Source of the DNA: a virus
DNA length: 37,801 nt
IMG/VR virus record: IMGVR_UViG_3300031730_000014
Coordinates: 1 to 37,801 of that record
Direction: 5' to 3' (one strand)
Program-made: the position numbers and the translations under genes
The notes under the pieces: generated by a model
Database searches by the model: none
What the model was told of the DNA's origin: nothing
What the model saw: only the letters and a program-made list of their open reading frames with translations
Part shown: positions 5,208-37,666 of the stretch, piece after piece
Position numbering within the stretch: position 1 is the stretch's first letter
How the letters are laid out: each line of letters starts with the position of its first letter

Positions 5208-5210
5208 GGA

Positions 5211-6816: not shown

Positions 6817-6853
6817 GGGGTCCGGACTGGTCCGTACCCCTGGACGCACGAAA

Positions 6854-6887: not shown

Positions 6888-6905
6888 ATTCCGTTTCGTA
6901 TTTCG

Positions 6906-9042: not shown

Positions 9043-9049
9043 GACGAAA

Positions 9050-9071
9050 GCCCCGGCCGTCGGCGCGGGGC
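9050..9071 (-). terminator. Hairpin between the tail and lysis genes
   Basis: On the minus strand, GCCCCG...CGGGGC is followed by TTTCGTC, immediately before the endolysin ATG. Confidence 0.3.
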
Positions 9072-9088
9072 GTGAGGGCGGGGCGGGG

Positions 9089-9322
9089 TTACTGCAGGGG
9101 TGTCTCGTCGGTGGCGATGCGGACGATCCCGCCGTTGACGAACGGGGGCTGCGCGAGGGCCTCCGCGAAGGTGGCGAGGGCGGCCTCGACACGCTCGGCG
9201 GGGAGCATCGCGGAGGCGCCACCGACGTAGATCTCGGTGATGTCCCCGCTGTCGTTGCCGATCGTCACGCGGTAGACGACGGGGGATCCGGCGAGGCTGA
9301 TCTGGCTGGCGAACCCGGCCAT
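9089..9322 (-). CDS. Hypothetical tail-region protein (77 aa)
   Basis: ATG at 9322 after AAAGGAG. Sequence MAGFASQISLAGSPVVYRVTIGNDSGDITEIYVGGASAMLPAERVEAALATFAEALAQPPFVNGG... Confidence 0.65.
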   Translation of the reverse strand: MAGFASQISLAGSPVVYRVTIGNDSGDITEIYVGGASAMLPAERVEAALATFAEALAQPPFVNGGIVRIATDETPLQ

Positions 9323-16873: not shown

Positions 16874-17474
16874 CACTCACCTCCGCGGATCTGTGCCTGG
16901 TGGTTGTCGATCCAGGTGGTGAGCAGGTCGAACTCTTCCTCGGTGAGGTCGTCGACGTCGCGCGGGGTGTAGCCGAAGTGCAGCCCGAACAGCGGCAGGT
17001 AGCTCAGCCGTCGCTCGGTGAAGCTGCCTCCGTCGGCGGCGTCTCCGGGGCGGGGGCGGGGGCCGGGTCTTTTGGGGCCGTCACGTCGGCGATCGCGGCC
17101 TCAGCGTCTGCAGGGTCGTGCGCCACGTCGCGGAGCTCGTCGAACGCCTCGGCGAGATCGTCCGGGTTCTCCCGGTACTCCTCGAACATGGCCTCGGCGT
17201 AGGCCTTGACCTCGCGGGCGTCGAGCCGGGAGCGCAGCTCACCCTCGAACGGATCGAAGTCACCGAACCTGAGAGCGGGTTCGGTGCGCTTCCGAATCGC
17301 CCAGACGACGACCCGCAGGGCGTGAATGTCGCCAGACCTCACGCCCTCCTTGATGTCAGCCCATCGGGCGTCAGCGGTGCGCTCGATGATCTGGATCTCG
17401 GAGGCGCGCAGCTGGCCGCGGCCGGCGTCGAAGGACTGCGGCTCGGAGCCCTCGGGCTCGTAGACGATGATCAC
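16873..17474 (-). CDS. Tail assembly chaperone GT fusion, produced by a -1 programmed frameshift
   Basis: The -1 frame is open from the slippery site to TGA at 16873-16875. It encodes ...RRLSYLPLFGLHFGYTPRDVDDLTEEEFDLLTTWIDNHQAQIRGGE, a typical T-segment motif. The stop overlaps the tape-measure ATG. Confidence 0.7.
17004..17474 (-). CDS. Tail assembly chaperone G
   Basis: GTG start 8 nt after AGGAG; 156 aa. It sits between the tail-tube region and the tape measure and has an acidic/Pro-rich C-terminus. Confidence 0.75.
   Translation of the reverse strand: MIIVYEPEGSEPQSFDAGRGQLRASEIQIIERTADARWADIKEGVRSGDIHALRVVVWAIRKRTEPALRFGDFDPFEGELRSRLDAREVKAYAEAMFEEYRENPDDLAEAFDELRDVAHDPADAEAAIADVTAPKDPAPAPAPETPPTEAASPSDG
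17070..17076 (-). promoter_or_regulatory. Slippery heptamer C_CCA_AAA for the G/GT -1 frameshift
   Basis: In the G reading frame the codons are GCC CCA AAA GAC, which fits X_XXY_YYZ. The plus strand reads ttttggg at 17070-17076. Confidence 0.6.
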
Positions 17475-18001: not shown

Positions 18002-18988
18002 TCACAGCGTGACGTCGGTCGACATGTACTCGATCTTCGGCTGGTTTGTGCCGTCGTACAGGCCGGTGAAGTTGAAGCTCGGCTTCACGACACCGAACCC
18101 GTCGACGACGGGCGGACCCTCGTCGAGGCGGATCGCGGGCAGGATGATGCGGAACGTCTCGAAGTACGTCGACGCGATCAGCGGGCCGATGAACTCCCAC
18201 ACCAGACTGGTCGCCCCGTCGCTGGTGTGCAGGTCATCCAGGGTCGTGGCGACGTAGTCCGACTCCAGCGTGCCGGTGATCTTGACCTGGTCGTTCTCGA
18301 TCGGCTCCTTCTTGAGAGCCGACTGGTTGGCGTAGAAGCGCTCGACGTCCTGAGGCCGCTCGATCTTGCAGGACACCTTGCGGATCCCGTCGAGCGCCGT
18401 CTCCGTACCGAACGCGCCGGTCTTGAGCGCCATCTGGCCGAAGTGGAACGGCGACATGTTCGAGTAGCTGGCGACCGCCAACGTCTGGCCCTCGTCGCAG
18501 TCCTTGCCGTCGATCTCGAACGTACCGGTGAGCATCTCGCCCACGCCGCACGCGAACTCACCCGACGTGATCTTGCAGCCCAGAAAGGTCTTGTCGGTCA
18601 CCGTGCCGGTCGTGAGTGGCACGCCCTTCTGGATCGTCAGGCTCTTGCCCGCGACCGACGCCAGGGTGTGAGTCTGCAGGTACGCGGTCGTCGCCGCCTG
18701 CTGGACGGGCGTGACCGTCGTGCCCATCAGCGTCTGCAGGATCAGCCCCATCCCCTTGTTGGAGATCTCCATTTCGAACGACCCGGAGACTTCCTTGCGC
18801 GTGAGGACGCGCCGTGCTGACAGCGGCAGCAGACGACCGGCCGCGATGCCCGCGCTCTGGGCCGTGGTCTTCTTGAGGACCAGCGATTCCTTGGTGAACT
18901 CGATGAACTTGGACGACGCCGTGAAGGTGCCGTAAGCCGACTCGGCCGCGATGCCCATCTGGGCGCCGAGCCCGGATCCGATCGCCAT
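18002..18988 (-). CDS. Major tail (tail tube) protein
   Basis: 328 aa, beta-rich, ATG after GAAGGAGGG. It lies upstream of the chaperone/tape-measure block. Sequence MAIGSGLGAQMGIAAESAYGTFTASSKFIEFTKESL... Confidence 0.7.
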   Translation of the reverse strand: MAIGSGLGAQMGIAAESAYGTFTASSKFIEFTKESLVLKKTTAQSAGIAAGRLLPLSARRVLTRKEVSGSFEMEISNKGMGLILQTLMGTTVTPVQQAATTAYLQTHTLASVAGKSLTIQKGVPLTTGTVTDKTFLGCKITSGEFACGVGEMLTGTFEIDGKDCDEGQTLAVASYSNMSPFHFGQMALKTGAFGTETALDGIRKVSCKIERPQDVERFYANQSALKKEPIENDQVKITGTLESDYVATTLDDLHTSDGATSLVWEFIGPLIASTYFETFRIILPAIRLDEGPPVVDGFGVVKPSFNFTGLYDGTNQPKIEYMSTDVTL

Positions 18989-20581: not shown

Positions 20582-21796
20582 TCAGGACGCGCCGCCGACG
20601 AAGACCTTGACCGCGCCGGTCTGGTCGATGAGCAGGCCGTCCGCGCGGATGATCGCCCGGAAGGTGACCAGGTCGGAGTTGAACGCGTAGTCGTCGGAAC
20701 GCTCGAAGCGCACCCCGCCCGCCAGGCGGACGAAGTACTGCGCGAAGTCACCGAACGCGACCGACTTCGCCGACAGTGCGGGCGCGGCCACGTTCGGGTC
20801 GGTGTGGACCGGCTTGCCCAGCAGCGTGTCCGGGGCGCCGACCTGGATGGACGGCTGCCACAGGTACTGCCCCTGCCCGTCCTTGAGCTTGCGTGCGGCG
20901 CCGAGAGTGGCGTCCCGCATCAGCCAGCCGCACGAGGTGCTGTTCCGGTACGGGGCGATGACCGAGTAGTACAGGTCGATCAGGTTGTCCGCGGTGAACG
21001 CACCCACCACGGCCGTGCCGCCGGTCACACCGGTCGAGGCGGAGGTGATGACACCGGTCGGCTTCGACGAGCCGTCACCGGTGATGGCGTGGACGCCGAA
21101 CGCGTTGCCCAGCGCCCGCCCGGCCTGCATCGCCAGGTAGCCCTCCAGGTCGACACCGGTGTCGGACAGCAGCTCGGACGACGCCTGCAGGAGAACGCCG
21201 TACTTGTACGCACCCAGAGTCCGCTTGGCGAACGCCGGGTCCGACTCCGAGATGGGTGCGGCCTCGGCGGTGAGCGCGGCGCTGGAGTGCGCCGTGGTCA
21301 CCGGGATCTCGATGCTCTCGCCGGACGCCGTGTTCAGCACGGTCGGCCCGGCCATCATGATCCCGGACACCTCGATGAGGTGCGCCATCAACTGGCCGTA
21401 GAACGTGGTCGGCACGGTGTTGCCGCCCGCCGTCGCGGTGCCCTTGACCAGGTCACGGAAAGCGACACCGTCAGGCTTGGCGATGTCGATGCCGCGCATC
21501 TCGCCGCGCGCCCAGCGCCGCAGCTCGGAGTCCTTGTCGCTCTTGCGCTCCTGCTCCTGCGGCTTGGCGAGCAGCCCGGCGAACGCAGCCTCGGCGTCCT
21601 TGGTGCGCTGCTCCGCCTCGACCAGGTCCTTGGCCCGCTGGTCCATCTTGTCGAGGTCGGCGTTGAAGGCCTGGTACTTGGCCTCCTCCTCCGCCGTCAG
21701 ATCCCGCTTCTCCTTCTCGGCCGTGTCGAGCAGCTCCTTGGCCTGCTCCCACACGTTGGCGCGGCGCTCCTGCAGCGCCTTGATGAACGAACTCAC
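20582..21796 (-). CDS. Major capsid protein, HK97 fold
   Basis: GTG after AGGAGGG. The N-terminal coiled-coil delta-like domain (RDLTAEEEAKYQAFNADLDKMDQRAKDLVEAEQR) is followed by a capsid body. The gene follows the prohead protease. Confidence 0.9.
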   Translation of the reverse strand: MSSFIKALQERRANVWEQAKELLDTAEKEKRDLTAEEEAKYQAFNADLDKMDQRAKDLVEAEQRTKDAEAAFAGLLAKPQEQERKSDKDSELRRWARGEMRGIDIAKPDGVAFRDLVKGTATAGGNTVPTTFYGQLMAHLIEVSGIMMAGPTVLNTASGESIEIPVTTAHSSAALTAEAAPISESDPAFAKRTLGAYKYGVLLQASSELLSDTGVDLEGYLAMQAGRALGNAFGVHAITGDGSSKPTGVITSASTGVTGGTAVVGAFTADNLIDLYYSVIAPYRNSTSCGWLMRDATLGAARKLKDGQGQYLWQPSIQVGAPDTLLGKPVHTDPNVAAPALSAKSVAFGDFAQYFVRLAGGVRFERSDDYAFNSDLVTFRAIIRADGLLIDQTGAVKVFVGGAS

Positions 21797-21884: not shown

Positions 21885-22559
21885 TCAGAAGGTGCGGCGA
21901 CTCATGAGCTCGGCTCGCCGCTGCCGTACCGCCATGACCGGGTGGGGGTCGCCCTGCCCAGTCGGCGGAATGATCGTGGGGGCCGGGGCCCCGAGGAACC
22001 GCTTCAGCTCGCCCGCCTCGGCCGCGGCCCGCACCTCGGCCAGCTCGGCGCCGGCCTTCTCCGCCAGAGAGCGCAGCCCCGTCGAAGTGTCCAGGTAAGC
22101 CGGATCGTTGACCGGGGCCACGTCGACCAGCTGCCCGGACAGCAGCGTCCGCACAGGGAAGCCGTCGTCCGTCATCGACCAGTCGTCCTCGAACGTGAAG
22201 AACGCGAACGACGACTCGGTGACGTCGCCGCGCTGCACCAGCTCGTACACGTCACCGCGGGCCGCGGGCACGTCGACGCTGTAGTCCAGCCCCGTACCGT
22301 CCGTCTGTAGCCGCAGCGTGCCCGCACGGGAGGTGCCCAGCAGCATGTTGTTGTCGTGGTTGTAGCGGGCCATCACACGCGGCCAGCCGTCCCCCTCGGA
22401 CTTCGCGAAGAACCCGGGGTCGATGCGCTCGACAAACCCGCCAAGGTTGCGGGACAGCGTGTTGAACTTCGCCGCGTACCCGCCGATCGTCCTGCTATCG
22501 CCGGCCGCCCGGACCTCCACGAGGCCGCGCGTGAACCGACGCTCACTGTCGCCGTTCAT
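21885..22559 (-). CDS. HK97-family prohead protease
   Basis: ATG at 22559 overlaps the portal stop. MNGDSERRFTRGLVEVRAAGDSRTIGGYAAKFNTLSRNLGGFVERIDPGFF...ARYNHDNNMLLG...GDVTESSFAF matches the S78/U35 protease pattern. The track ORF extension to 23699 is spurious. Confidence 0.88.
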   Translation of the reverse strand: MNGDSERRFTRGLVEVRAAGDSRTIGGYAAKFNTLSRNLGGFVERIDPGFFAKSEGDGWPRVMARYNHDNNMLLGTSRAGTLRLQTDGTGLDYSVDVPAARGDVYELVQRGDVTESSFAFFTFEDDWSMTDDGFPVRTLLSGQLVDVAPVNDPAYLDTSTGLRSLAEKAGAELAEVRAAAEAGELKRFLGAPAPTIIPPTGQGDPHPVMAVRQRRAELMSRRTF

Positions 22560-23704
22560 CACTTCTCGCTTTCGTCGCGGGCCACCTTGCCCAGTGGCGC
22601 GTAGTCCTTGCCCAGACCGTTGGGCAGGGGCGGTTCGTCTTCCATCCGGCGCAGCTCGTCGATGTTGTGCAGGCCGATCGCCCGGGAGATCCGGTGGGCC
22701 TGGTAGCGGGTGAGGGTGTCGGTGCGGAGCATCGCGTCCGCGTTGAACCGGGCCTCTTCCGTGGGAGGGCGCAGCAGCGAGAACGCGTCCTCCAGGCGGG
22801 CGAGCCACGGGCGCAGCGTCCACGTCAGGAGGTCGATGCTGTTCTGCTCGACCGTGGCGTAGGTGAGGCTGCCGCCCGTCTCGCCGCCGACCTTCTCCGG
22901 CGGCACGCCGTAGATTGCGGCGATCTGGTTCGCGGTCGCCTTGATGGTCTCCAGGAACTGCGACTCGTTGGCCGGCACCGAGATGGCCCGGTACTTCACG
23001 CCGTTGCCCAGCGCGACCACGTCGCGGCCCTGGGCAGCTTCCTTGAAGCGGGCCTTCAGGATCGTCGCCGCGTCCCGGTCGACGACCATGTCCGTCTCCA
23101 GGACCGCGCTCGGGGTGGAGCCGTTGGCGAACCAGTCCCGCCCGAACTGGTTGGCCAGCAGCCCGGCCTCCGTCGTCGTCGCGAAGTACGCGATCGGCGA
23201 CAGCCCGAGGATCTGCCCGGGCACCGTGTACGCGGGGACGTGAAACATCTGCCCGTCCTCGAGACGGCGGCCCTTGTAGTACCAGACCGGCACCGCAGCG
23301 AGGTTGTCCTCGATGTGGACGTCGTCCGGGTGGAGCCACTCGATCTGGGACGGCCAGCCGTCCGGGCCCCAGGCGACGATCAGCCCGTAGGCGTTGCCGC
23401 GCAGCGTCAGCGACGTCATGCACCGGTGCAGCCAGTCGTAGCGCGTACCGACCGCGCTCGGGCGGCGGAACAGCGGGGGCACCGGGGCCCGCAGCCGGTC
23501 CTCTCCGTCCGCCCGGTAGGACTTCAGCGGCAGGGACGCCACCGAGTCCGCCAGCAGCCGCGTGGCCGCGTACACGGGCCCCAGCCGCAGCGCCCGTTCC
23601 TGGCTGCCGCCGCGCAGTACGGCTGGGTCCGAGCCCGAGCCCCACACGTCCTGGTACGAGATCGCCCGCTTCAGCGCCGTTCGACGGAAGGGCCACCACC
23701 TCAT
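22559..23704 (-). CDS. Portal protein (HK97 family)
   Basis: 381 aa, lying between the large terminase and the protease. Sequence ...LGPVYAATRLLADSVASLPLKSYR...NAYGLIV...WLHPDDV... Confidence 0.88.
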   Translation of the reverse strand: MRWWPFRRTALKRAISYQDVWGSGSDPAVLRGGSQERALRLGPVYAATRLLADSVASLPLKSYRADGEDRLRAPVPPLFRRPSAVGTRYDWLHRCMTSLTLRGNAYGLIVAWGPDGWPSQIEWLHPDDVHIEDNLAAVPVWYYKGRRLEDGQMFHVPAYTVPGQILGLSPIAYFATTTEAGLLANQFGRDWFANGSTPSAVLETDMVVDRDAATILKARFKEAAQGRDVVALGNGVKYRAISVPANESQFLETIKATANQIAAIYGVPPEKVGGETGGSLTYATVEQNSIDLLTWTLRPWLARLEDAFSLLRPPTEEARFNADAMLRTDTLTRYQAHRISRAIGLHNIDELRRMEDEPPLPNGLGKDYAPLGKVARDESEK

Positions 23705-23717: not shown

Positions 23718-25256
23718 TCACCACACGCTGCTCAGAATGTCTCCGGACCGCTTGTCCTCCACCTCGGCGCCGAGGCCCCACTTGGCTTCCGTCGCCGCGA
23801 CCAGGGGGCTGATATCGACGGAGACGATCCGCCGGGCCCACGCCCACGAGTCACCGAGCGTCCGTTTCTGCGCACCCGCCAGCGCCGACGCCAGCGGCGC
23901 CTCGTCGAAGTGGGTCAGCGACTGGTCGGCGACAGCGTCGTAGAACTGGCCGCAGGCCGCCGCCATCTCCCGGGCCTTGGGCTTGACCACCTCGACGCCC
24001 AGGCCGTCGTCCTCGTCCTCCAGATCGTCGATGAGGGAGCCTGCAGCGCTGGCCGGATCGACCACCCAGCAACGCGGCTCCCACTTGGCGTGCAGCTCCT
24101 TGGCGCGCTCCACGACCCAGCCCACGCCGGGCCGGTGGTCGACCACCGTGACGTGCACACCGCCCCGCCAGGGGAACGCTGCGCAGATCGCCGCGTGCGA
24201 CCGCTCCGGGGTGACGTCGATGGCGAACGCCACCGTCCCCGACCGCTCGGCGTCTGTGACCGCCAGGGCCCGCCAGGCTTCCTCGCCGATGACCTGCCAG
24301 GTGGCCGCCTGGTCGGACGGGTAGTCGCCGACCCCGAGCCGCTCACGGGCGTACAGGGCGTCGCCCATCGTCAGCCTCCGGTGCATGCTCTTCTCGACTT
24401 GGAGCCGGTAGCCGACGGCCGGGTTCGCCTTCAGCAGCGACGCGACGGAGTCGATGTCGTCGTGCTCCGTACAGCCACGCGGGCACTCAGCCAGGTGCGG
24501 GGTGATGGACCACTCGAAGTACGCCAGGACCGGATCCAGCGTGCCGCTCTCCAGCGCGGCCATGGCCCGGGCCCGCAGCCGCCCCAACTGCTGCGACGGG
24601 GCGCCGATGCCTGCGCTGCCGAGGAACCACAGCTGACTGTTCTCGACGGCCTCCGTCGTCGGCGCGAGGGCCGACATGGAGTCGTCGCCGAGAATCATGC
24701 ACTCGTCGAAGATGACGCAGTCCGAGGTGAAGCCACGGCCGGAGCCGCGGGAGCGGGCGATGTACTTCAGCTCCCGCCCGTCATGCAGCTCGATGCCCTC
24801 GCGGCCTACCGTCTTGTGGTACGCCTTGACGCGTTTATGCAGGTCAGGGCATCCGCGGATGAGGCGCTCGATGCGCTTCATCGTGTTCATCGTGGTTTTG
24901 AACTCGTGAGCCGACAGCAGGATCTGCTTCTCGCCACCGATGAACAGGCCCCACAACACGCGGGCCTCGATCACTCCGCCCTTGCCGTTCTGGCGCGGCA
25001 GGTTAATCGCGACCTCGGGCGCCGACCAGGAACCGTCCGGCTTCTCGCCCATCCCGACGCGCAGGATGTGCTGCTGCCACGGATCCAGCTTCAATCCCGC
25101 GCGCGCGGCAAGGTCGATAGCCTCCTGGCCGGCGCTCGACACCGACGGCGGCGCAGTCTCGATCGGCGGCTTCTGCCAGCCGTAGACCGGCTCGTCAGCC
25201 GGTGGACTGCTCACGGGCTGCGGCTCGGCGCTTCTCTCGCTGCTCAGCAATGTCAT
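23718..25256 (-). CDS. Terminase large subunit
   Basis: 512 aa. The sequence ...DPWQQHILRVGMGEKPDGSWSAPEVAINLPRQNGKGGVIEARVLWGLF...FDECMILGDD... carries ATPase Walker-like motifs, followed by a nuclease half. The gene is directly upstream of the portal. Confidence 0.9.
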   Translation of the reverse strand: MTLLSSERSAEPQPVSSPPADEPVYGWQKPPIETAPPSVSSAGQEAIDLAARAGLKLDPWQQHILRVGMGEKPDGSWSAPEVAINLPRQNGKGGVIEARVLWGLFIGGEKQILLSAHEFKTTMNTMKRIERLIRGCPDLHKRVKAYHKTVGREGIELHDGRELKYIARSRGSGRGFTSDCVIFDECMILGDDSMSALAPTTEAVENSQLWFLGSAGIGAPSQQLGRLRARAMAALESGTLDPVLAYFEWSITPHLAECPRGCTEHDDIDSVASLLKANPAVGYRLQVEKSMHRRLTMGDALYARERLGVGDYPSDQAATWQVIGEEAWRALAVTDAERSGTVAFAIDVTPERSHAAICAAFPWRGGVHVTVVDHRPGVGWVVERAKELHAKWEPRCWVVDPASAAGSLIDDLEDEDDGLGVEVVKPKAREMAAACGQFYDAVADQSLTHFDEAPLASALAGAQKRTLGDSWAWARRIVSVDISPLVAATEAKWGLGAEVEDKRSGDILSSVW

Positions 25257-25670: not shown

Positions 25671-26108
25671 TCACCACTCCAGTGTCCGGCCGGCCGTCGG
25701 GGTCCGGGTGGCGGCCGGCCGCTGCCGGTACCAGCGGGTGGCGACCCGTTTCATCTCGGGGTCGCGCATGGCTTCGATGCGCTGCATCACGATGGTGCGC
25801 CCGGGGTCGACGGCGATGACCTTGGCGTCCATGCGCTTGTACCGGGCGAGCCACTTGGGGCTGGGATTGGTGTGGATCAGGTAGACATCGACCTTGTCGC
25901 GGTGCTCGAACGCCTCGTACATGGCGGCGTACCGGGCCTTGTGGGCGACGCGCAGCAGTGTCGGGTCCTGGTTCCACTGCGGGGCGCCGGGTCCGGCGAG
26001 CGCGCGGGTGATGCGGTCGAGGTCGATGACCACGTCGTTGGGCTTGGCGTGCGCGTCGATCCAGCTGGTCTTGCCGGAGGCCGGCGGGCCGGTGACGACG
26101 TACAGCAC
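25671..26108 (-). CDS. P-loop NTPase (AAA/kinase-like ATP-binding protein)
   Basis: GTG start. The Walker A motif GPPASGKT lies at the N-terminus: MLYVVTGPPASGKTSWIDAH... Confidence 0.75.
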   Translation of the reverse strand: MLYVVTGPPASGKTSWIDAHAKPNDVVIDLDRITRALAGPGAPQWNQDPTLLRVAHKARYAAMYEAFEHRDKVDVYLIHTNPSPKWLARYKRMDAKVIAVDPGRTIVMQRIEAMRDPEMKRVATRWYRQRPAATRTPTAGRTLEW

Positions 26109-26112: not shown

Positions 26113-26394
26113 TCACCACCTCAGCTGAGGGCGCTGGCGTACCACCTTCGGTGTGGTGGTGCGGTTGCCGCGGCTGCTGTTGCACTTCCGATGCGCGGGC
26201 CGGGCGTTAGCCGGGTCGAGCAGGTTGCCGCCCTTGGACAGCGGCTGCTCGTGGTCGAGGGTGAAGGACAGAGGGTGCTTGGCGTTCAGCTCGTACCCGA
26301 TGTTGTGGCCGCAGATCCAGCAGGGCAGGCGCTGGGCTCGGAGCCAGGCGCAGAGTCGGCGGTAGGGGCGCCCGTTGCGTGGGTTGCCGGCCAC
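26113..26394 (-). CDS. HNH endonuclease
   Basis: GTG after GGGAGG. It contains CWICGHNI...LDHEQPLSKGGNLLDPANARPAHRKCNSSRG (H-N-H with a Cys zinc site). It lies near the terminase genes, as in HK97-like cos phages. Confidence 0.88.
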   Translation of the reverse strand: MAGNPRNGRPYRRLCAWLRAQRLPCWICGHNIGYELNAKHPLSFTLDHEQPLSKGGNLLDPANARPAHRKCNSSRGNRTTTPKVVRQRPQLRW

Positions 26395-26416
26395 GGGCGC
26401 CGCCTCCCGGTGTGGG

Positions 26417-26881
26417 TCAGGGTGTGGGCGTGGCGTTCAGCAGGCTGTTGGTGACGTCCTCGATGGCCTGGTTGAGCTCGTCCTCGGGGAGGTCGCCGCA
26501 GACCTTGTAGCCCTCGGTGGCGTCGATGCCGCCGCCTGTGCTGTGGAGTTGGTCTTCGATCCAGGCTCGGCACTCGGGGCTGACGCTCGTGGTGGCGGCG
26601 GCTGTGTCGGTGGGCAGGGCGCTGTTGACGGCGGCGCCGACCTGGTCGGCCATGAGCTCGCCCGCGTACTTCTGGAGTGTCTTGGTGGCGATGCCGTCGC
26701 ACTGGGAGGGGTGGGTGCCGGGTGTGGCGCTCGCGCCGGAGTCGATGGCGTCCTGGAGTTGCTTGCGCATGGCCGTCTTGCAGGCGGCTGGGTCGGCCTT
26801 GGCGTCGTCTCCGCCGCTGCATGCGGTGAGGGCGGCGGTGAGGGCGAGGAGGGCGGCGCAGGCGGCTGTGCGGGTCTTCAT
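26417..26881 (-). CDS. Secreted lipoprotein (moron candidate)
   Basis: ATG at 26881 after GGGGGAA. The signal peptide plus lipobox is MKTRTAACAALLALTAALTAC|SGG. The mature part has 4 further Cys. The upstream extension of the track ORF to 27130 is junk. Confidence 0.8.
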   Translation of the reverse strand: MKTRTAACAALLALTAALTACSGGDDAKADPAACKTAMRKQLQDAIDSGASATPGTHPSQCDGIATKTLQKYAGELMADQVGAAVNSALPTDTAAATTSVSPECRAWIEDQLHSTGGGIDATEGYKVCGDLPEDELNQAIEDVTNSLLNATPTP

Positions 26882-27064
26882 GGTTCCCCCGGGGCTTGGA
26901 TGCTGAGGGGGCATCATGCGACGCGTGGAACCGCTGTGGGGGCGCTGTGGCCGTGTTGTGACGATGGGGGGTCCGCCGCCCGGCGCTGAGCATCCCTGCG
27001 GGCCCGTGTTCCCGCGTGAGGCTCCCCAGCCTCCGGACGCCGGGCGGCGGACGTGGGGCACGAC

Positions 27065-27099
27065 GAAGCCCCGGCGGGGGTGGTGGTGGCCGGGGCTTC
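27065..27099 (-). terminator. Strong hairpin after the early gene block
   Basis: Perfect 11-bp stem GAAGCCCCGGC (27065-27075) / GCCGGGGCTTC (27089-27099) with a 13-nt loop. There is no U-tract. Confidence 0.55.
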
Positions 27100-27169
27100 G
27101 TGTGCGTCTGTGGTGCCTGCTTCGGGGCACAGTTGTTCACCGAGATCGTGACACGGCCCTGACCTGCGG

Positions 27170-27379
27170 TCAAGCGGCGTCGCGTGCTTGGCGTTCGGCA
27201 GCGAGGGCAGCGACGTCCTGGGCGGCGTACCAGGCCTGTCGTGGTGTGCCGCCTGAGCGGGTGAGGCGGCCGCGGCGGACCAGCTGCCGGACGGTGCCGA
27301 GCTCGACGCCGAGCATGCGCGCGGTCTGGTGGGCGGTGAGGTGGCCGGGCCGGATCATCTGCGACTCCATGACCCCCAT
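27170..27379 (-). CDS. MerR/excisionase-type HTH DNA-binding protein
   Basis: ATG at 27379 or 27370. Sequence ...MIRPGHLTAHQTARMLGVELGTVRQLVRRGRLTRSGGTPRQAWYAAQDVAALAAERQ. The upstream part of the listed 174-aa ORF is junk. Confidence 0.7.
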   Translation of the reverse strand: MGVMESQMIRPGHLTAHQTARMLGVELGTVRQLVRRGRLTRSGGTPRQAWYAAQDVAALAAERQARDAA

Positions 27380-27387
27380 GATGCGGG

Positions 27388-27792
27388 CTACGGCCGCCAT
27401 TCCTCGCGGTAGCCGGGCCGGTCCGAGTAGGGCAGCGCGAGCAGGCGCAGCGTCCTGCACGGCCAGCTGGCATTGATTCCGTCGTCGCGGTAGCAGGTGC
27501 CGCAGTCGCTGCCGAGGTCGCTGACGTTGATGGCGGGGTGTGCGTCGATGATCCGCCGCTTCGCGTCGATCTCGCCCAGCACCCGAGCGGGATTCCATCG
27601 GACGATGTGATCTGCCTGCACGGCCTCGTGGATGACCCCGACATGCGGCGTGATCGTCGTGTGCTGCTGCCGCTCGGGCCGGTGCGCACCCCATCCGTTC
27701 TCCGGGTCAGCCTGCCCGCTGAACGCCTGCTGTGCAGCCTCAGCTTCCTCGTCGAGCTGCTCGCCGAGCCACTGCACCAGGTCTTCGCTCAT
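27388..27792 (-). CDS. DUF6221-like protein
   Basis: 134 aa. ...HIVRWNPARVLGEIDAKRRIIDAHP...CGTCYRDDG...WPCRTLRLLALPYSDRPGYREEWRP matches my recollection of the Streptomyces DUF6221 pattern. Confidence 0.65.
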   Translation of the reverse strand: MSEDLVQWLGEQLDEEAEAAQQAFSGQADPENGWGAHRPERQQHTTITPHVGVIHEAVQADHIVRWNPARVLGEIDAKRRIIDAHPAINVSDLGSDCGTCYRDDGINASWPCRTLRLLALPYSDRPGYREEWRP

Positions 27793-27878
27793 GAGCTCAT
27801 CCTCTCGTACCGATGTCGCCTGTGGGGCCTATCGGATCACCGCGTTCGGGGGCAGGTTGAGGGCTCGGCGGGAGGGCC

Positions 27879-27968
27879 CGAAACTCGAAACTTGGCAGGT
27901 GGGGGCCGATATCGGGGGCGAAACCGGTTTCGGATCAAGGCGAAACCACACCCTTGATCCGAAACCGG
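27879..27968. repeat. CGAAAC repeat cluster with nested palindromes (candidate clt / TraB recognition locus)
   Basis: CGAAAC starts at 27879, 27886, 27919, 27941 and 27960, with an inverted copy at 27927-27932. Perfect palindrome CGAAACCGGTTTCG at 27919-27932. Inverted repeat GGATCAAGG (27932-27940) / CCTTGATCC (27952-27960). The cluster ends 12 nt from the stop of the translocase gene. Confidence 0.5.
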
Positions 27969-27979
27969 CTCGGCGGCCC

Positions 27980-30103
27980 CTATTCGCCGTCCTCGACGGC
28001 AGGGAGATCGGCGTAGCGGAGGCCCTTGGCGCCGCCGCAGCACTCCCGGATCGTCAGCTGCTTGGTGGAAACCTTGAAGGGCTTCAGCGCGGCGCTGAGG
28101 GCCGTCGACGAGCCTGCGGCATCCAGCTCCAGCCACTGCTTGTACAGGTCGGCCCGGTAGGCGGCGAGGGCCTCGACGAGCCGGTGGGAGTGCACAGCCT
28201 CGACACCGTCCGGCCAGACCGCCCGCAGGTGGTCGACGACCGTCTCGACGTCCTGCTCTTCGACCGCGGCACCGACGGCCTGTCCGGTGAGGGTGCCGGC
28301 CGCGGTGCGCAGTGCGAGGGCCCGCTTCCCGATGTCCTCGGCTTCGGTCTGCTTGATGAACGCGGCGCGGACGGTGATGCCTTCGCGGCCGCGGGCGAGG
28401 ATGCCGGTGCCCTGTTCGTCGACGCTGATGTCGGTGGCGCGCAGGCCGCGGTCGTAGGCGCCGGTGCCTAGGACGTTGTTGTTGGCTCGCCAGTCCATGA
28501 CGGCCAGGCACAGACGGGTGCCGACTGACGAGGAGACGCCGGTGGGCAGGGACGGCGCGTCCGGGTTCTGGGTGAGCAGGATGAGGATGATGCCGTAGGC
28601 GCGGCCCTTCTTGATGAGGCGGGTGGCCAGGGCGGCGGCCTCGTCCTTGTAGTCGGCGTGGGTGAAGAGTTCCTGGACCTCGTCGATGACGATGACGCGC
28701 GGGCCGAGGTTCTGTTCCGGGTACTTCTCAGCCAGCGCGCGGGTGACCTTGCGGCCCTCGGGGACCTCGCTGGACGGCAAGGACTTGATGAACTTGGCGC
28801 GCCGCTGGTACTCGGCGATCCCGGAGCGCATGCCGCCGAGGGCGGCCTCCAGGTCCTCGTCTTCGTCGCCGGAGACGTAGCGGTGGCAGACGGGGCGGAC
28901 GGAGTCGAGGTCGCCGGATCCCTTGAGCTCGAAGATCCACAGTTCGGCGGTGGGGTCGAGGGCGACTCCGAGGACGATGGCGAGGGCGCAGGAGGTCTTG
29001 CCGGAGCCGGGGATGCCTCCGACCAGGAGGTTTGAGTACATGAGGGTGATCTCGACGAGGTTGCCGCGCGGGTCGAAGCCGTAAGGCAGCGGCTCGTACA
29101 CGTCGGCCTGGCCGTCCTTCATCAGCGGCCACAGCTTGCGGGCGGCCTTCGCGGGGTCGCGCTGCGCCACCCACAGGACGAGGCGTCCGGGATGCGCGGT
29201 GCGGTCGCCCTCAAGCCACACGGTGCTGATGGGGCGGCGCATGGCGGCGGCGAGCGCGGCCCGCTTCTCCAGGACGGCGCTGGCCTCGATGCCGGGGGGC
29301 AGGTCGACCTCGGCTCGCCAGCCGGGCCCGTCGCGCATGACCTCGGAGGCGAACTCGGTTCCCTTCTTGCCCTTCTTGCCTTCGATGCCGATTGCGGCGA
29401 GCGCGTCGAGGACCTCGGTGGAGTCGAGGCGGCGCAGGACGTTGGTGGCGACGTAGCGGGTGATCAGCGGCTTCCCGTCGCTCTTCTTGCCGTTGAGGCC
29501 GACAAGGGTGGCCGCGGTGAGCGTCGCGGTGAGCGTCCAGCCGGGGGCCAGGAAGCAGCCGGCCAGCGTGGTGATGCCGGTGGTCGTGGCGACCGCCAGG
29601 GAGGCGATACGGCGTGGCCGGACGCGGCGGGAGTGCTCGCGGGACAGCGTGATCCAGGCGTCGATGTCCGCGGACGCGGCGGCCTTGGCTTCGACGGGTC
29701 GGGCCTCGGTGTCCGCGACCCACTTGCCCCAGCGGAGAACCATGCGGGCGAGGCCGCGGGGCGCGCGGGTGAGCAGGCGCAGGGCGTAGACGGGCAGGCG
29801 GATGGCGTGGAAGGCGGTGACGTGGCCGTAGTACGACGCGGTCCAGCGGGCGGCGTTGACGAACTCGGCGGCGTTGCGCAGGAACGTGGGGACGACGGGC
29901 GGGGCGTCGGCGAGGTACGCCTGCTTCTCCGCGATCCAGGTGCCTGCGGGCGGGGCCTGCTCGGGCGGGTCGACAGGACGCGGCTCGGCGTTCTGGACGA
30001 CGTCGATGATGGTCTGCTTCAGGTCCGCGTCCTGGACGTCCTCGCTATCCGGCGGGGGCGTCCTGGGGGCGTCCTTGTGGAGCTGTACGACGTTGTTCGT
30101 CAT
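27980..30103 (-). CDS. FtsK/SpoIIIE-family DNA translocase, TraB-like
   Basis: 707 aa. Hydrophobic N-terminal segments (IASLAVATTTGITTLAGCFLAPGWTLTATLTAATLVGL), Walker A GGIPGSGKTS, Walker B PRVIVIDEVQELF, LLTQNP, and a C-terminal helical domain. Confidence 0.9.
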   Translation of the reverse strand: MTNNVVQLHKDAPRTPPPDSEDVQDADLKQTIIDVVQNAEPRPVDPPEQAPPAGTWIAEKQAYLADAPPVVPTFLRNAAEFVNAARWTASYYGHVTAFHAIRLPVYALRLLTRAPRGLARMVLRWGKWVADTEARPVEAKAAASADIDAWITLSREHSRRVRPRRIASLAVATTTGITTLAGCFLAPGWTLTATLTAATLVGLNGKKSDGKPLITRYVATNVLRRLDSTEVLDALAAIGIEGKKGKKGTEFASEVMRDGPGWRAEVDLPPGIEASAVLEKRAALAAAMRRPISTVWLEGDRTAHPGRLVLWVAQRDPAKAARKLWPLMKDGQADVYEPLPYGFDPRGNLVEITLMYSNLLVGGIPGSGKTSCALAIVLGVALDPTAELWIFELKGSGDLDSVRPVCHRYVSGDEDEDLEAALGGMRSGIAEYQRRAKFIKSLPSSEVPEGRKVTRALAEKYPEQNLGPRVIVIDEVQELFTHADYKDEAAALATRLIKKGRAYGIILILLTQNPDAPSLPTGVSSSVGTRLCLAVMDWRANNNVLGTGAYDRGLRATDISVDEQGTGILARGREGITVRAAFIKQTEAEDIGKRALALRTAAGTLTGQAVGAAVEEQDVETVVDHLRAVWPDGVEAVHSHRLVEALAAYRADLYKQWLELDAAGSSTALSAALKPFKVSTKQLTIRECCGGAKGLRYADLPAVEDGE

Positions 30104-31096: not shown

Positions 31097-31269
31097 CGCG
31101 TCCACCCCCGGATGTGGCGGCTGATGCGCGGCCACGCGATGACGCCGGCCGCGAACGCGAGGACGGCGGGCTGCGAGACGAGCCCGGCAACGACGGCCAG
31201 GACGAGGGCGAGGAGCGTCGGGTACGCGACGAGGAGGCCGAGGACGGCGCCGAACAGGATGCGCATCAT
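31093..31269 (-). CDS. Small membrane protein (58 aa)
   Basis: ATG at 31269 with an ATGA overlap onto the upstream stop. Sequence MMRILFGAVLGLLVAYPTLLALVLAVVAGLVSQPAVLAFAAGVIAWPRISRHIRGWTR. The listed 336-aa ORF is an over-extension. Confidence 0.55.
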   Translation of the reverse strand: MMRILFGAVLGLLVAYPTLLALVLAVVAGLVSQPAVLAFAAGVIAWPRISRHIRGWTR

Positions 31270-32039
31270 GACGGCACCGCCTCGTAGTCGGGGAGCTCGT
31301 CCTCGTGGAAGAGGTTGCGTCCTCCGATGCCTTTGCGGTGGACGGTGAGGCGTCCTGAGGCGACCCAGGAGCGGACGGTGGACATCTCGATGCCGTACTT
31401 CGCGGCGACCTGGGCGGAGTTGAGGAGGGGCGGTTGGGGCGGGATCTGGTTCGCTTCCGCCCAGTCGTCCTCGGCGTCCTGGTCCGTCCCGGGCGGGAGT
31501 TCGGGCGTCCCGTCGGCGTCCTGCTCGTCGAGCCGTTCGAGAGTGATCTCGTCGGTCGACAAGGGGTCGGCCTGACCCTCTGTCGCTACCTCGGGGACGC
31601 TCGGGACGGCTGGAGACGCCGGGGCGTCCTCGGCGTCGTGCGCCAGGCGCTCGTGCAGCTGCCGCATGAGGGCGCCGAACGCTACGAGTGCGGCGGAGGG
31701 CGGGACGGCGGCCACGATGTACTCCATCGGGTCGGCCCCGTATCCGACGCCCGCGACGTTCAGTGCGATCGAGCCGAGGGACCCGAATGCGGCGAGGGCG
31801 ACGGCCCACCAGTCCATGCCGCGGCGGGCCAGCGACGCGCGGAGGATGAGGAGTTCCCCGGCGACGATGAACAGGTCGACGGTGGCGGGCCAGGCCCAGG
31901 CGCGGGCGCCGTCGAGGCCGTTGTCGTCGGCGATGTCGTGGAGGTGTTCGTAGGACAGCCAGAAGGCGGCTGCGGTGAGCAGGATGGTGACGGTGGCTGC
32001 GCCGACGGCGAGGCCGTCGCGGGCGTTGATACGGCTCAT
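31266..32039 (-). CDS. DUF2637-like polytopic membrane protein with a C-terminal HTH (SpdA-type spread protein candidate)
   Basis: The N-terminal half is LAVGAATVTILLTAAAFWLSYEHLHDIADDNGLDGARAWAWPATVDLFIVAGELLILRA...WAVALAAFGSLGSIALNVAG, followed by an acidic linker. The C-terminal LLNSAQVAAKYGIEMSTVRSWVASGRLTVHRKG is an excisionase-type HTH. Confidence 0.75.
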   Translation of the reverse strand: MSRINARDGLAVGAATVTILLTAAAFWLSYEHLHDIADDNGLDGARAWAWPATVDLFIVAGELLILRASLARRGMDWWAVALAAFGSLGSIALNVAGVGYGADPMEYIVAAVPPSAALVAFGALMRQLHERLAHDAEDAPASPAVPSVPEVATEGQADPLSTDEITLERLDEQDADGTPELPPGTDQDAEDDWAEANQIPPQPPLLNSAQVAAKYGIEMSTVRSWVASGRLTVHRKGIGGRNLFHEDELPDYEAVPS

Positions 32040-32758
32040 CGGCCTTCACCTCGCAGGCGGGCGAGCTCGGCGATGGCGCGGTCGAGGCGGGCGGACGCGA
32101 CACGAATGGCGCGGGTGAGGTGCCGGCCGTCCTCCGGGTCGACGGAGGCGTCGAGGTCGAGGGCGACGTACAGGACGGGGTGGGGCTCGGGCTGCTGTAC
32201 GGCGTGGGGTGCGTGGGTGATGCAGCCGTGCATGACCTCGATCTCGCCGTGGCTGGCGGTGATGGCGGTCGCGGTGATGGGCGGCCCGTTGTGGGTGACG
32301 TCGGCGAGGCGGCCGACGGTGTCGTCGCCGTGGCCGATGCACCAGACGGGCTCGTCGACGGTGACCTCGCCGTGGTCGCTGGTCTGCAGCGTGACGGTGC
32401 CGTCCCTGTAGCGGGGGTCCTGCGCCAGGGGCGGGGCCGGGTCGCGCCGGGTGTAGGCGCGTTCGATGGCGGCGTCGATGGCGGCCAGCAGCTCGGGGGA
32501 GATGCGGGCGGTGGACGCTTCCTGCTCGGTGCCGATGACGGCTGCGGCGGCGAGGTAGCCCTCGACTTCGCGGCGGACGTCGAGGATGTCCAGCTCCGGA
32601 AGCGGCGGCTGGCCGGCCTGCTCGGCGTGGCCGATGGCGAGGGCGGCGCGCAGCTGCTCGCGGGAGACGACGAGGGAGATGTTGACCGTGGCGAACGCGT
32701 CCCAGTCGTCGTCGCAGGGGATCGGGTCGGTGGGTCCGAAGGCGGGCGGGGTGCTCAC
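32036..32758 (-). CDS. Hypothetical protein (240 aa)
   Basis: GTG at 32758 with a GTGA overlap. Sequence VSTPPAFGPTDPIPCDDDWDAFATVNISLVVSREQLRAALAIGHAEQ...VWCIGHGDDTVGRLADVTHNGPPITATAITASHGEIEVMHGCITHAPH... The upstream part of the listed 318-aa ORF is junk. Confidence 0.6.
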   Translation of the reverse strand: MSTPPAFGPTDPIPCDDDWDAFATVNISLVVSREQLRAALAIGHAEQAGQPPLPELDILDVRREVEGYLAAAAVIGTEQEASTARISPELLAAIDAAIERAYTRRDPAPPLAQDPRYRDGTVTLQTSDHGEVTVDEPVWCIGHGDDTVGRLADVTHNGPPITATAITASHGEIEVMHGCITHAPHAVQQPEPHPVLYVALDLDASVDPEDGRHLTRAIRVASARLDRAIAELARLRGEGR

Positions 32759-33015
32759 TGGCCGCTCCGCTCGCCGGCGAGGAAGGTGGCCACTCCGGGG
32801 AAGTGCCTGTCGACGAAGCGGCGGGCGGCCTCCTCCTCGGTGACCGGCTCGGCGTCGAGGGCGCGGAGGACGAGGCGCAGCGATTCGCGGAGGGCGATGG
32901 GGCTGCCGCTGTCGAGTGTGCGCTGGGCGACACGGATGGCGACGTCGAGGTCGCTCGGTTCGGTGGCGCGCACGGTGGTGTCGTCCGCGCATGCGGACGT
33001 GGAAAGATCGGTCAT
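32755..33015 (-). CDS. Hypothetical protein (86 aa)
   Basis: ATG after AGGAG. Sequence MTDLSTSACADDTTVRATEPSDLDVAIRVAQRTLDSGSPIALRESLRLVLRALDAEPVTEEEAARRFVDRHF... Confidence 0.6.
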   Translation of the reverse strand: MTDLSTSACADDTTVRATEPSDLDVAIRVAQRTLDSGSPIALRESLRLVLRALDAEPVTEEEAARRFVDRHFPGVATFLAGERSGQ

Positions 33016-36181: not shown

Positions 36182-37666
36182 TCAGAAGGACGGAACGGTC
36201 TGGAGTCCGTAGATCACCGACCTTCGGTTGGTGGGGTGCTGGCCTCGGGCATAGCCCTTCTCCTGGAGGGCGTCGCCGAACGCGCGGATGCTCATCTCGC
36301 GGAGGGACCCGGTCTGGCACCACTGCTTGTAGCTGGCGAAGAGCACGCCGGTCTCGGTGTACTGGTCGGTCTCGATCGGCCTGGTGCACTCGTCCCGCCA
36401 CATCAGGAGCGGATCGGACTTCGCCAGGTGCTCCTGCGTCTTCTCCTTGACTGCGGCAGGTACGGCAAGCCCGTTCTGCTGCCAGTCGAGGCATCCGGCG
36501 ATCGCCCAGTTCAGTACGCCCGCCGCCTCATTGGCGAGGATCTTCTCGTCGTACTTCTTGATGCGCTTTTCGGGCGGCACGATGACGTCCCAGCCGATGT
36601 CCTGGAGGCGGCGGGCGATGCCGTGCCCGCCGCCGACGGTAGGCAGGTAGTTGGTGACGAGGTGGATCTTGCCGACGGGCCGGAAGTCGAAGTACTCCTT
36701 GTTGAGGAACCGGGCGCTCACGGTGTCCTCGCCGGTGAGCTGCTTGACCAGCTCGTCGTCGAGCTTCTTGCCGGCCGATGTCTCGGTCGTGGAGAGCAGG
36801 CGCTTGCCCATCATCCGGGCGACGTCGTTGGGGATGCCTTCGTTCTGCTTGGCCATCAGGGTCGACCGTGGAACGGACTGCGCGTAGTCGCCGAAGATCT
36901 CGGTGATGACGCGCATGAACACGCCCTTGCCGTTCTGTCCGTCGCCGTGGTGGATGAACATCACCTGCTCCTCGGTGGAGCCGGTGAGGGTGTAGCCGAT
37001 GACGCGGGCCAGGTAGGCGCGCCGCTCCTCGTCGGGCATGACCGAGGCGAGGAACTCTTCCCACATCGGGGCCTTGGCGTTCGGGTCGTAGATGATGGGT
37101 GACTGCTGCATCAGGTACAGCCCGGCCTCGTGCTGCTGGAGTTCGCCCGTGCGCAGGTCGACGACGCCGTTTCCGACGTTGAGCAGCATCTCGGGCCGGT
37201 CGAAGTCGTCCATGTAGCAGTGCAGGGACGGGTGGCCCTGTGCCACCTCGCGCATCGCTGCGAGCTTGGGACGCATCCGCTGCGACGCCGCCCACTTCAT
37301 GAACGTCTCGCGCGGAGAGGGCAGCTCCTTGCCGTCCTCGCCGCGGCCGGGCACGTTGCTGTACGCGCCCGCCTCGGTGTGCGCGAGTGCGTCGATGGTG
37401 CGGATGACGCGCTGCCAGACCCGGGTCGATCCGCCCTTGAAACTCCAGCGGCCGTCCTCGTAGGTCACCCATTGCTCGGCGTCCACGGTGTACCGGATCT
37501 CGGATCCGTAGTGGTCGACGAGCCGCTCTGCGTTCCCGATGTCGTCGAGGGTGCGGCGCGGATACGCCAGGCTCCGCTGAGGTGTTGGCCCCGGCTCGTC
37601 GACGGCAGGGGGTTCCGGTTCCCCGGCCCACATGTCGTCGTCGGGGACATCGGCCGCGGAGGTCAC
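36182..37666 (-). CDS. Phage/plasmid primase-helicase (P4-family / D5-like SF3 NTPase)
   Basis: 494 aa. D5_N-like ...LLNVGNGVVDLRTGELQQHEAGLYLMQQSPIIYDP...WEEFL..., Walker A FIHHGDGQNGKGVF, ...LLSTTETSAGKKLDDELVKQLTGEDTVSARFLNKEYFDFRPVGKIHLVTNYLP..., and a C-terminal ...FASYKQWCQTGS... segment. Confidence 0.9.
   Translation of the reverse strand: MTSAADVPDDDMWAGEPEPPAVDEPGPTPQRSLAYPRRTLDDIGNAERLVDHYGSEIRYTVDAEQWVTYEDGRWSFKGGSTRVWQRVIRTIDALAHTEAGAYSNVPGRGEDGKELPSPRETFMKWAASQRMRPKLAAMREVAQGHPSLHCYMDDFDRPEMLLNVGNGVVDLRTGELQQHEAGLYLMQQSPIIYDPNAKAPMWEEFLASVMPDEERRAYLARVIGYTLTGSTEEQVMFIHHGDGQNGKGVFMRVITEIFGDYAQSVPRSTLMAKQNEGIPNDVARMMGKRLLSTTETSAGKKLDDELVKQLTGEDTVSARFLNKEYFDFRPVGKIHLVTNYLPTVGGGHGIARRLQDIGWDVIVPPEKRIKKYDEKILANEAAGVLNWAIAGCLDWQQNGLAVPAAVKEKTQEHLAKSDPLLMWRDECTRPIETDQYTETGVLFASYKQWCQTGSLREMSIRAFGDALQEKGYARGQHPTNRRSVIYGLQTVPSF

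Follow-up and report, generated by a model that had tools for sequence, protein, structure and literature searches.

A conserved repeat array past a TraB-like translocase gene in temperate siphophages of mycelial actinomycetes, a candidate clt with a new recognition word

Results

A repeat module follows the translocase stop codon

We analyzed the viral stretch IMGVR_UViG_3300031730_000014 of IMG/VR over its 37,801 nucleotides (nt), hereafter called the window, and gene identification across these 37.8 kb identified it as a complete temperate siphophage of 69.6% G+C. An FtsK-like translocase of 707 residues is encoded on the minus strand at 27980-30103, with its stop codon at 27980-27982, and the next start codon, that of a DUF6221 protein gene (27388-27792), lies at 27792. 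The intervening gap of 187 nt contains a 92-bp module of short repeats (27877-27968), which starts 11 nt after the translocase stop codon. The original prediction, made from the sequence of the window alone, had likened these repeats to clt, the cis-acting locus at which TraB translocases of Streptomyces plasmids recognize DNA. All of its coordinates proved exact, i.e., the length of the gap, the five CGAAAC copies that start on the plus strand at 27879, 27886, 27919, 27941 and 27960, the inverted copy at 27927-27932 and two symmetric elements described below.

The genes surrounding the array are all on the minus strand, and on their strand, hereafter the gene strand, the repeat is GTTTCG, or (G)GTTTCG(G). 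The module is made of six such sites and two degenerate ones. Site 1 (27959-27968, minus strand; CCGGTTTCGG on the gene strand, CCGAAACCGG on the plus strand) occupies near-invariant columns of the alignment of relatives. Site 2 (27941-27947, minus strand) sits in the loop of a hairpin and reads GGTTTCG here and GGTTTCA in most relatives, GGTTTCac being conserved. Sites 3 and 4 face each other head to head in the invariant 14-bp palindrome CGAAACCGGTTTCG (27919-27932), which is followed by the palindrome CCGATATCGG (27906-27915), made of two overlapping degenerate sites (GATATCG). After a spacer that occurs as two alleles among the relatives (27892-27905, with CAGGTG at 27896-27901, CACCTG on the gene strand), sites 5 and 6 form the tandem pair GTTTCGaGTTTCG on the gene strand (27879-27891, minus strand), with a step of 7 bp. 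An ACCTGC/GCAGGT box, at 27895-27901 in the window, recurs in several lineages that use other hexamers. An additional copy, inverted and degenerate, is found at 27840-27852 (CCGCGTTCGGGGG on the plus strand, CCCCCGAACG on the gene strand), and it recurs as CCCGRAAYCGG or CCGAAACGG some 40 to 50 nt past the tandem pair in many loci.

Within the module, 27924-27940 and 27952-27968 also form a perfect 17-bp inverted repeat around an 11-nt loop. Ten of its base pairs come from sites 1 and 3 and seven from variable arms, and it extends to 37-nt arms with 76% complementarity. The two symmetric elements of the original prediction, namely, the 14-bp palindrome and the pair GGATCAAGG (27932-27940) / CCTTGATCC (27952-27960), are both present, but they had been under-described, as the latter pair is part of the 17-bp inverted repeat, the second palindrome CCGATATCGG had been overlooked, and the gene strand reads GTTTCG.

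The hexamer is not frequent in the window as a whole, with 10 copies of CGAAAC/GTTTCG on both strands compared with 13.65 expected from shuffled sequences. Six of the 10, however, lie within 90 bp (27879-27965), whereas the largest count per 90-bp span in 300 first-order Markov simulations of the window was three. The Poisson probability of such clustering is approximately 7e-8 after Bonferroni correction over all positions. The array is thus real and chance is excluded, the decisive evidence being its conservation in approximately 100 independent loci. With several direct repeats of 5 to 9 bp and inverted repeats within approximately 50 to 175 bp, it has the composition of a clt-type feature as defined by repeat sizes and span in PMC3583192.

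The module is linked to the translocase gene in both search directions

A protein search for relatives of the translocase returned 44 viral contigs and 60 genomic loci, with protein identities of 50 to 92%. The genomic loci are mostly from Streptomyces, with others from Actinacidiphila, Actinomadura, Spirillospora and Nocardiopsis, and most members of the family are prophages integrated in chromosomes; S. scabiei 87.22 and S. populi A249 are examples of hosts. The original prediction had proposed looking for the motif downstream of homologous translocases in related prophages, and the palindrome, as [CT]GAAAC[CT]GGTTTC[GA], is found past the translocase stop codon in 98 of the 100 evaluable loci. 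It lies 7 to 163 nt from the stop codon, at 45 to 51 nt in most loci, and in three loci with a small inserted gene it follows that gene. Each locus of approximately 10 kb contains the palindrome at one place only (as two adjacent copies inside the module in three loci), and it is absent from 843 kb of flanking sequence outside the modules.

On the gene strand, the consensus of the module is cCGGTTTCGG, 7 variable nt, nnnnGGTTTCAcc, 7 variable nt, CGAAACCGGTTTCG, cccCcGATATCGg, approximately 13 nt with CTG, and GTTTCGrGTTTCG. The spacing of these elements is conserved as well. Measured from the start of the palindrome, site 1 is at -34 nt in 71 of the 84 unique sequences, GATATCG starts at +19 nt in 78, and the tandem pair is at +41 nt in 71; in seven others the pair is at +51 to +53 nt, i.e., one helical turn farther. 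Because the tandem pair of distant loci has GATATCG or GATTTCG in place of GTTTCG, the site must be regarded as degenerate, G[GA]T[TA]TCG, and CCGATATCGG is then itself a pair of overlapping sites.

The reverse search gave the same answer. Among 2.9 million viral contigs, 44 match the pattern CGAAACCGGTTTCRN5GATATCG, each of them once. Upstream DNA is included in 43 of these stretches, and in all 43 the match is located approximately 50 nt downstream of a homologous translocase gene; the remaining stretch has the module at its very start, but the translocase gene is present on the contig (L030). Over approximately 100 loci, the array is therefore linked exclusively and bidirectionally to the translocase gene.

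In contrast with the module, its other neighbors vary. The first downstream open reading frame (ORF) belongs to 42 unrelated families in 98 loci. DUF6221 proteins account for only three of them, which contradicts, in its specific form, the alternative initially envisaged that the repeats serve the promoter of a DUF6221/HTH operon (HTH, helix-turn-helix); a 77-aa HTH protein is found in 27. The slot at 27388-27792 and its equivalents in loci L001 to L104 form a hot spot of gene replacement, whose commonest occupant is this MerR/Xis-like HTH protein. HNH, terminase or DUF2637-HTH genes of the type found in the window are present in only about a third of the loci. The terminases differ between loci, with phrog_19179 in L074 and the small subunit TerS of phrog_83 in L063; in the other loci, terminases of different families lie approximately 2 kb downstream. 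A homologue of the DUF2637-HTH protein is detectable in 22 of 68 loci, and its HTH part in 15 of 68. As these neighbors vary, the array belongs with the translocase gene rather than with the DUF6221 operon, the packaging genes or the DUF2637-HTH gene. In this prophage family, motor gene and site occupy a fixed place that immediately precedes the variable slot and the packaging genes.

The C-terminal domain of the translocase covaries with the repeat word

The resemblance of the gene to traB, noted in the original prediction, was substantiated. The protein matches the Pfam family FtsK_SpoIIIE (PF01580; 28.5 bits for a cut-off of 24, E = 1.3e-6) and phrog_1358 (3.4e-29), and residues 224 to 571 match the FtsK structure 2IUU of the PDB (E = 4.9e-7). 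The Walker A (GIPGSGKT) and Walker B (VIVIDE) motifs are at positions 363 and 470, respectively. In tblastn searches, TraB of plasmid pSVH1 (NC_007431) is 31% identical over the 320 residues of the motor domain (aa 262 to 582; E = 5e-24), and dozens of Tra proteins of Streptomyces plasmids match at approximately 31%. By sequence, the protein is thus an FtsK/SpoIIIE motor with both Walker motifs and is homologous to a characterized TraB, two features of the TraB type. Hydropathy analysis indicated a moderately hydrophobic hairpin at residues 166 to 203 (Kyte-Doolittle 1.2 to 1.5), with basic residues on either side. None of the cultured phages among 50,697 phage records carries this translocase, as determined by blastn and tblastn, the best match being Gilgamesh at 27.6%.

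The approximately 90 C-terminal residues make up the putative DNA-recognition domain. AlphaFold2 models of this region, built on shallow alignments of approximately 85% identity, had pLDDT values of 60 and 75. The second model (last 92 residues, pLDDT 75) consists of a helix, a short strand, three helices and two strands, and its top Foldseek matches were mostly winged-helix proteins (Fur, Rok, TubR, PadR, FoxO, MukE and Rex), at E values of 0.9 or more and TM scores of 0.5 or less.

We then considered the closest homologues outside the family, whose proteins are 35 to 41% identical to that of the window. The 18.4-kb Streptomyces plasmid NZ_CP107792 (L105), which resembles the integrative and conjugative elements of actinomycetes (AICEs), has at 6965-7060 two GCTATCGATAGC palindromes with GATAGC/ATAGC half-sites and GGCCCACCTGCAA, its word being GCTATC. 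A Nonomuraea locus (L152) has six GCTAGC-type words at 3442-3550. In pPaSha2 (L106), a 41.9-kb circular plasmid of Pseudonocardia alni with phage genes, GCTACATGTAGC and GCTACA/GCTACG follow a small inserted gene (7205-7300), and the Pseudonocardia broussonetiae plasmid NZ_CP053567 (L151) harbors GGGTCAGGaatCCTGACCC and copies of GTCAGG/CCTGACC (2875-3030). pSVH1 itself (L107) has four perfect copies of GACCCGGA, one inverted copy and several imperfect ones in approximately 125 bp, from 5 nt past the stop codon. L105, L152, L106 and L151 thus share with the window a palindrome-plus-half-site array directly past the translocase stop codon or a small inserted gene, but each uses another hexamer. 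Five further lineages in all use five other words (GCTATC, GCTAGC, GCTACA, GTCAGG and GACCCGGA). As these arrays share their place and differ in their word, the architecture is common to the lineages and the word is private to each. The arrays of L105, L152, L106 and L151 appear to be unannotated and undescribed, and we regard them as candidate clt loci.

We compared the motor columns (aa 250 to 580) and the C-terminal columns (aa 615 to 700) of these proteins. The window protein and that of L042, a locus with the same word, are 50% identical in the motor and 63% in the C-terminal domain. For pairs with different words, the C-terminal domain is the more divergent part, with motor and C-terminal identities of 47 and 27% for the window and L105, 47 and 23% for the window and L106, and 59 and 34% for L105 and L106. 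L105 and L152, whose words are nearly the same, are 46 and 49% identical. C-terminal similarity thus tracks the repeat word, as would be expected if this domain reads the adjacent word.

In the L106 TraB-like protein (4890-6938), residues 575 to 671 also weakly match DUF3631 of the RepAM family in its C-terminal part (E = 4e-4). This match is a hint of a DNA-reading domain common to the replication initiators of AICEs and to Tra proteins.

A putative recognition and loading site for the translocase

Taken together, these data make it probable that the 92-bp array is the cis-acting recognition and loading site of the adjacent TraB/FtsK-like translocase, i.e., the equivalent of a clt, with (G)GTTTCG(G) and its GATATCG variant as a new word. 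The clt-like reading proposed initially is thus supported by sequence comparison, through homology of the protein to pSVH1 TraB, linkage in both search directions, sister arrays and C-terminal covariation. By analogy with TraB of pSVH1 and TraA of pWTY27, the C-terminal domains of a membrane-anchored hexameric motor would read the six to eight phased sites, five direct and one inverted, the ring would assemble on double-stranded phage DNA, and the DNA would be pumped across the membrane or a septal cross-wall. Since this translocase belongs to a complete temperate siphophage, the DNA moved would be the genome of the phage itself, either excised or replicating. It is from these characterized systems that we infer both binding by this translocase and DNA transfer as the outcome.

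Several observations weigh against this interpretation. Foldseek searches with either model of the C-terminal domain gave no significant fold match (best E = 0.9), and a profile search of the domain against PDB sequences found nothing. The covariation sample is small, with approximately six lineages. Outside the modules, GTTTCG is neither enriched nor depleted (observed/expected ratio of 1.09 over 843 kb), arguing that there is no genome-wide signal of the kind formed by the FtsK-orienting polar sequences (KOPS). Part of the conservation could be regulatory, since the gap must hold signals for the downstream genes, such as the CGACAYC box described below. Finally, no conjugative behavior of a tailed phage is documented in the literature searched.

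The array might instead be bound by another protein of the element that tethers the DNA at the membrane or organizes a nucleoprotein complex. The obvious candidate is encoded upstream of the translocase gene, at 31266-32039 (minus strand). Its product is a DUF2637 membrane domain (Pfam, 3.9e-16) fused to an Xis/BldC-like HTH_17 domain (7.4e-7; NCBIfam HTH_BldC, 1.8e-5). Proteins of the Xis/BldC type with an HTH_17 domain bind direct repeats cooperatively, and short direct and inverted repeats suit this class. DUF2637 genes also precede the translocase gene on L105, L106 and L151, which makes DUF2637 and FtsK-like genes look like a conserved pair. However, the HTH part is found upstream in only 15 of 68 loci that share the identical array, and the DUF2637 protein of L106 (210 residues) has no extra domain, yet L106 has an array of its own. 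The fixed distance is that to the translocase stop codon, and it is the C-terminal domain of the translocase that tracks the motif. We therefore consider it unlikely that this protein, or some other regulator, is what the array serves. The DUF2637-HTH protein is a possible Spd-like partner of the translocase; SpdB2 of pSVH1 itself has no Pfam match.

The conserved core consists of DNA words rather than RNA structure

Another explanation is that the region is mainly transcriptional, with the hairpin terminating or stabilizing the translocase mRNA and the repeats acting as operators for a promoter that leads into the packaging/late operon. Its position is suggestive, as the array lies at the early/late boundary of the phage map and the perfect 17-bp stem begins 11 nt past the stop codon. 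The predicted fold is also stable (-55.7 kcal/mol for 116 nt, z score of -4.1). The variable arms retain 5.02 of 7 Watson-Crick pairs, compared with 3.57 ± 0.20 when arms are permuted, and A-T to G-C double changes are found at three arm positions, so that the changes in the arms are partly compensatory.

This pairing evidence, however, comes essentially from two haplotypes, and recombinant haplotypes disrupt the pairing. Site 1 and the arms, and with them the hairpin, are missing from the most distant loci, in which only the palindrome, GATATCG and the tandem pair remain. We therefore regard the conserved core as a set of protein-sized DNA words. In the hairpin loop, the hexamer is kept as a sequence, and the hexamer is present in both orientations. 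In six Actinomadura/Spirillospora loci (L039, L084, L085, L088, L090 and L102), the core is inverted relative to the gene, approximately 100 to 160 nt past the stop codon; it reads tandem pair, CAGGT spacer, GATACC and palindrome, and the site 1 hairpin is missing. Since the orientation of the module relative to the gene is reversed in these loci, the module works at the level of DNA and not of RNA, as far as sequence comparison can tell. Compared with the window protein, that of L084 is 82% identical in the motor and 51% in the C-terminal domain, which suggests that the C-terminal domain and the site were exchanged together in this locus.

Searches for known signals pointed the same way. A scan of positions 27000 to 28600 with Rfam 15 yielded only hairpin-shaped microRNA matches below threshold (e.g., 27.1 bits for a threshold of 50), which rules out a known RNA element at the gathering threshold. 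Scans for a U-tract, a terminator-like or a sigma-70-like site found none, only UUUCG being present after the stem. The region is thus neither a canonical intrinsic terminator nor a canonical promoter, as a stem is present with no U-tract and the module is inverted in some loci. Lastly, AICE-like plasmids devoid of late genes bear analogous arrays. A mainly transcriptional function appears quite unlikely on these grounds. As for the hairpin, it is an accessory and might be a terminator without a U-tract for the translocase transcript, or an inverted repeat like that of the pIJ101 clt, which is called "essential" in PMC3583192. While the array would serve as a loading site, its 17-bp hairpin may thus additionally end the translocase transcript.

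A regulatory function for another part of the gap is likely. A CGACAYC box is found exactly 69 nt past the tandem pair in 37 of 38 aligned loci (27812-27818, minus strand, in the window; CGACATC on the gene strand, GATGTCG on the plus strand). It lies approximately 20 to 25 nt before the next start codon, whatever the gene, a fixed arrangement that also speaks for signals of transcription. The 69-nt stretch between the tandem pair and the box is fixed in length and highly variable in sequence. The box may be a promoter or 5′ untranslated region element of the downstream genes, or else mark the outer limit of the cis site; it is similar to TGACACC, a repeat of pWTY27. A second conserved hairpin between the tandem pair and the box was also considered and discarded: some loci could be paired by eye, but RNAalifold found no consensus on 38 loci.

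Replication, partition and packaging

Multiple phased short repeats around a central palindrome could also denote a replication origin (an iteron cluster) or a partition/centromere site. Some members of the family may be extrachromosomal, as L106 is a circular phage-plasmid. Short palindromes on Streptomyces plasmids are also said to serve stability, as in the SpdA2/sps system (PMC4170104). However, the gene for the D5-type primase-helicase (36182-37666) is 6 kb away, the repeats are 6 to 8 bp long and not 17 to 22 bp as in iterons, and there is no AT-rich unwinding stretch. In addition, we found no ParA/ParB-type gene in the window, and most members are chromosomally integrated prophages. The sps palindrome, CGTCACGTGACG, is unrelated to the module, which rules out an SpdA2/sps site. 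An origin or partition function is thus very unlikely.

A packaging signal (cos or pac with terminase-binding repeats) is highly improbable: the array does lie toward the end of the early region, with the terminase genes 1.2 to 2.5 kb downstream, and cos sites likewise combine repeats with a symmetric element, but terminase families vary between loci whereas neither the motif nor its spacing from the translocase stop codon does, variable genes intervene, non-phage relatives bear analogous arrays, and the relatives of the HNH and polynucleotide kinase-like genes place cos near 25.5 kb. The latter position follows from the AAA_33 homologue being the final gene before the genome end in related phages.

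Comparison with known transfer loci

To our knowledge, few clt loci have been defined, all of them on small Streptomyces plasmids. They consist of direct repeats of 5 to 9 bp and inverted repeats beside tra, their sequences differ between plasmids, and TraB or TraA binds them through its C-terminal domain (PMC3583192, PMC4447253, PMC4170104). In pSVH1, the GACCCGGA repeats are given as the TraB recognition sequence (TRS) (Reuther 2006 and Vogelmann 2011, summarized in PMC4170104, PMC4447253 and PMC3583192). Like the pSVH1 clt, the array of the window begins a few nucleotides past the stop codon of a homologous FtsK-like translocase gene and comprises approximately six to eight short repeats in approximately 100 to 125 bp, mostly direct, one inverted and capable of forming a hairpin. 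The two proteins have homologous motor domains and comparable lengths (772 residues for pSVH1 TraB, 707 here). In contrast, their C-terminal domains are only approximately 24% identical, the word is (G)GTTTCG(G) and not GACCCGGA, the 14-bp palindrome and CCGATATCGG are additional in the window, and the carrier is a tailed temperate phage here and a rolling-circle plasmid for pSVH1. That the repeat differs from the published TRS, as initially noted, thus holds, and because of its word the array is a site of this kind without being a pSVH1-type TRS.

The other clt loci invite similar comparisons. That of pWTY27 is defined by a TraA footprint on TGACACC and CCCGCCC repeats (PMC3583192). In the same paper, the pIJ101 clt is described as a 54-bp sequence with an inverted repeat and three G(C/A)AAC repeats, and that of pJV1 as having nine 9-bp repeats. 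The array shares with these three loci, as they are presented there, a position beside or overlapping the 3′ end of tra and short direct and inverted repeats. The G(C/A)AAC repeat of pIJ101 resembles the GAAAC core found here, possibly by coincidence, and no repeat word is identical; unlike the array of the window, the pIJ101 clt, as described there, is near korB and not directly after tra. TraA of pWTY27 has two N-terminal transmembrane segments (PMC3583192), and the hydrophobic hairpin of the window protein may represent a similar arrangement. No clt is known for pSAM2, the archetypal AICE (PMC9513070).

Recognition of a short word is also a property of the wider family to which the translocase belongs. 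FtsK-family motors are thought to load on an 8-bp word through a small C-terminal DNA-reading domain, KOPS for FtsK and the SpoIIIE recognition sequences (SRS) for SpoIIIE. KOPS are dispersed over the chromosome with a strand skew, whereas the word of the window is concentrated in a single array. The parallel between the FtsK gamma domain with KOPS and TraB was drawn in PMC4447253.

A possible conjugation module in tailed prophages

As a kind of site, clt is known; what is new here is the word, the palindrome-centered layout and, above all, the tailed-prophage carrier. We found no description of a phage-borne TraB/clt pair in a literature search that was incomplete. Tentatively, one may imagine that these complete temperate siphophages, a large mosaic family in Streptomyces and related mycelial actinomycetes, possess a functional plasmid-type conjugation module for double-stranded DNA, in which a TraB-like motor is combined with a clt of its own, bearing a new word, and with a DUF2637 Spd-like partner. 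Such phages would be hybrids of phage and conjugative element, and their genomes would spread between hyphal compartments or mycelia without virions.

The analysis precisely delimits a candidate clt, with a new recognition word. Together with the diverged C-terminal domains to which they are paired, the sister arrays (GCTATC, GCTAGC, GCTACA and GTCAGG) offer a ready system to study how TraB-type proteins read DNA. Site and motor reside inside complete tailed prophages, and over 100 genomes and viral contigs carry them. Should the pair function, it would give temperate phages of mycelial bacteria a second, virion-independent route of spread, a possibility to which the only allusion so far concerns SpdB2 homologues on actinophages (PMC4447253). 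Such a route would matter for the colonization of the mycelium by prophages, for gene flow mediated by prophages in Streptomyces, and for the distinction between "phage" and "conjugative element" in genome annotation.

Other features of the window

The remaining genes of the siphophage include those for a serine integrase (3227-4735), an endolysin (8104-9222), the tape-measure protein (13544-16876), a minor tail protein (18002-18988), the major head protein (20582-21796), the portal protein (22559-23704) and the large terminase, a phrog_9-type TerL (23718-25256). They are followed by genes for an AAA_33/polynucleotide kinase-like protein (25671-26108, minus strand) and an HNH endonuclease (26113-26394), and a DUF6907 protein is encoded at 32036-32992, next to the DUF2637-HTH gene. 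No tRNA genes were found in the window. The approximately 1 kb between the DUF6221 and HNH genes (26395-27387, minus strand) is covered by overlapping long ORFs (26286-27689, 26417-27130 and 27170-27694), and no family match was found for any of the three.

The homologues of the AAA_33 protein that lie beside HNH genes carry discordant names. In the genomes of cluster P mycobacteriophages and Gordonia phages, compared between RefSeq and GenBank copies of the same genome, the protein is called "terminase small subunit" in the former and "polynucleotide kinase" in the latter. Lastly, CTCGAG, the XhoI site, is scarce in the related prophage loci L001 to L104, with an observed/expected ratio of 0.22 in 843 kb, modules excluded. 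This scarcity may reflect restriction avoidance.

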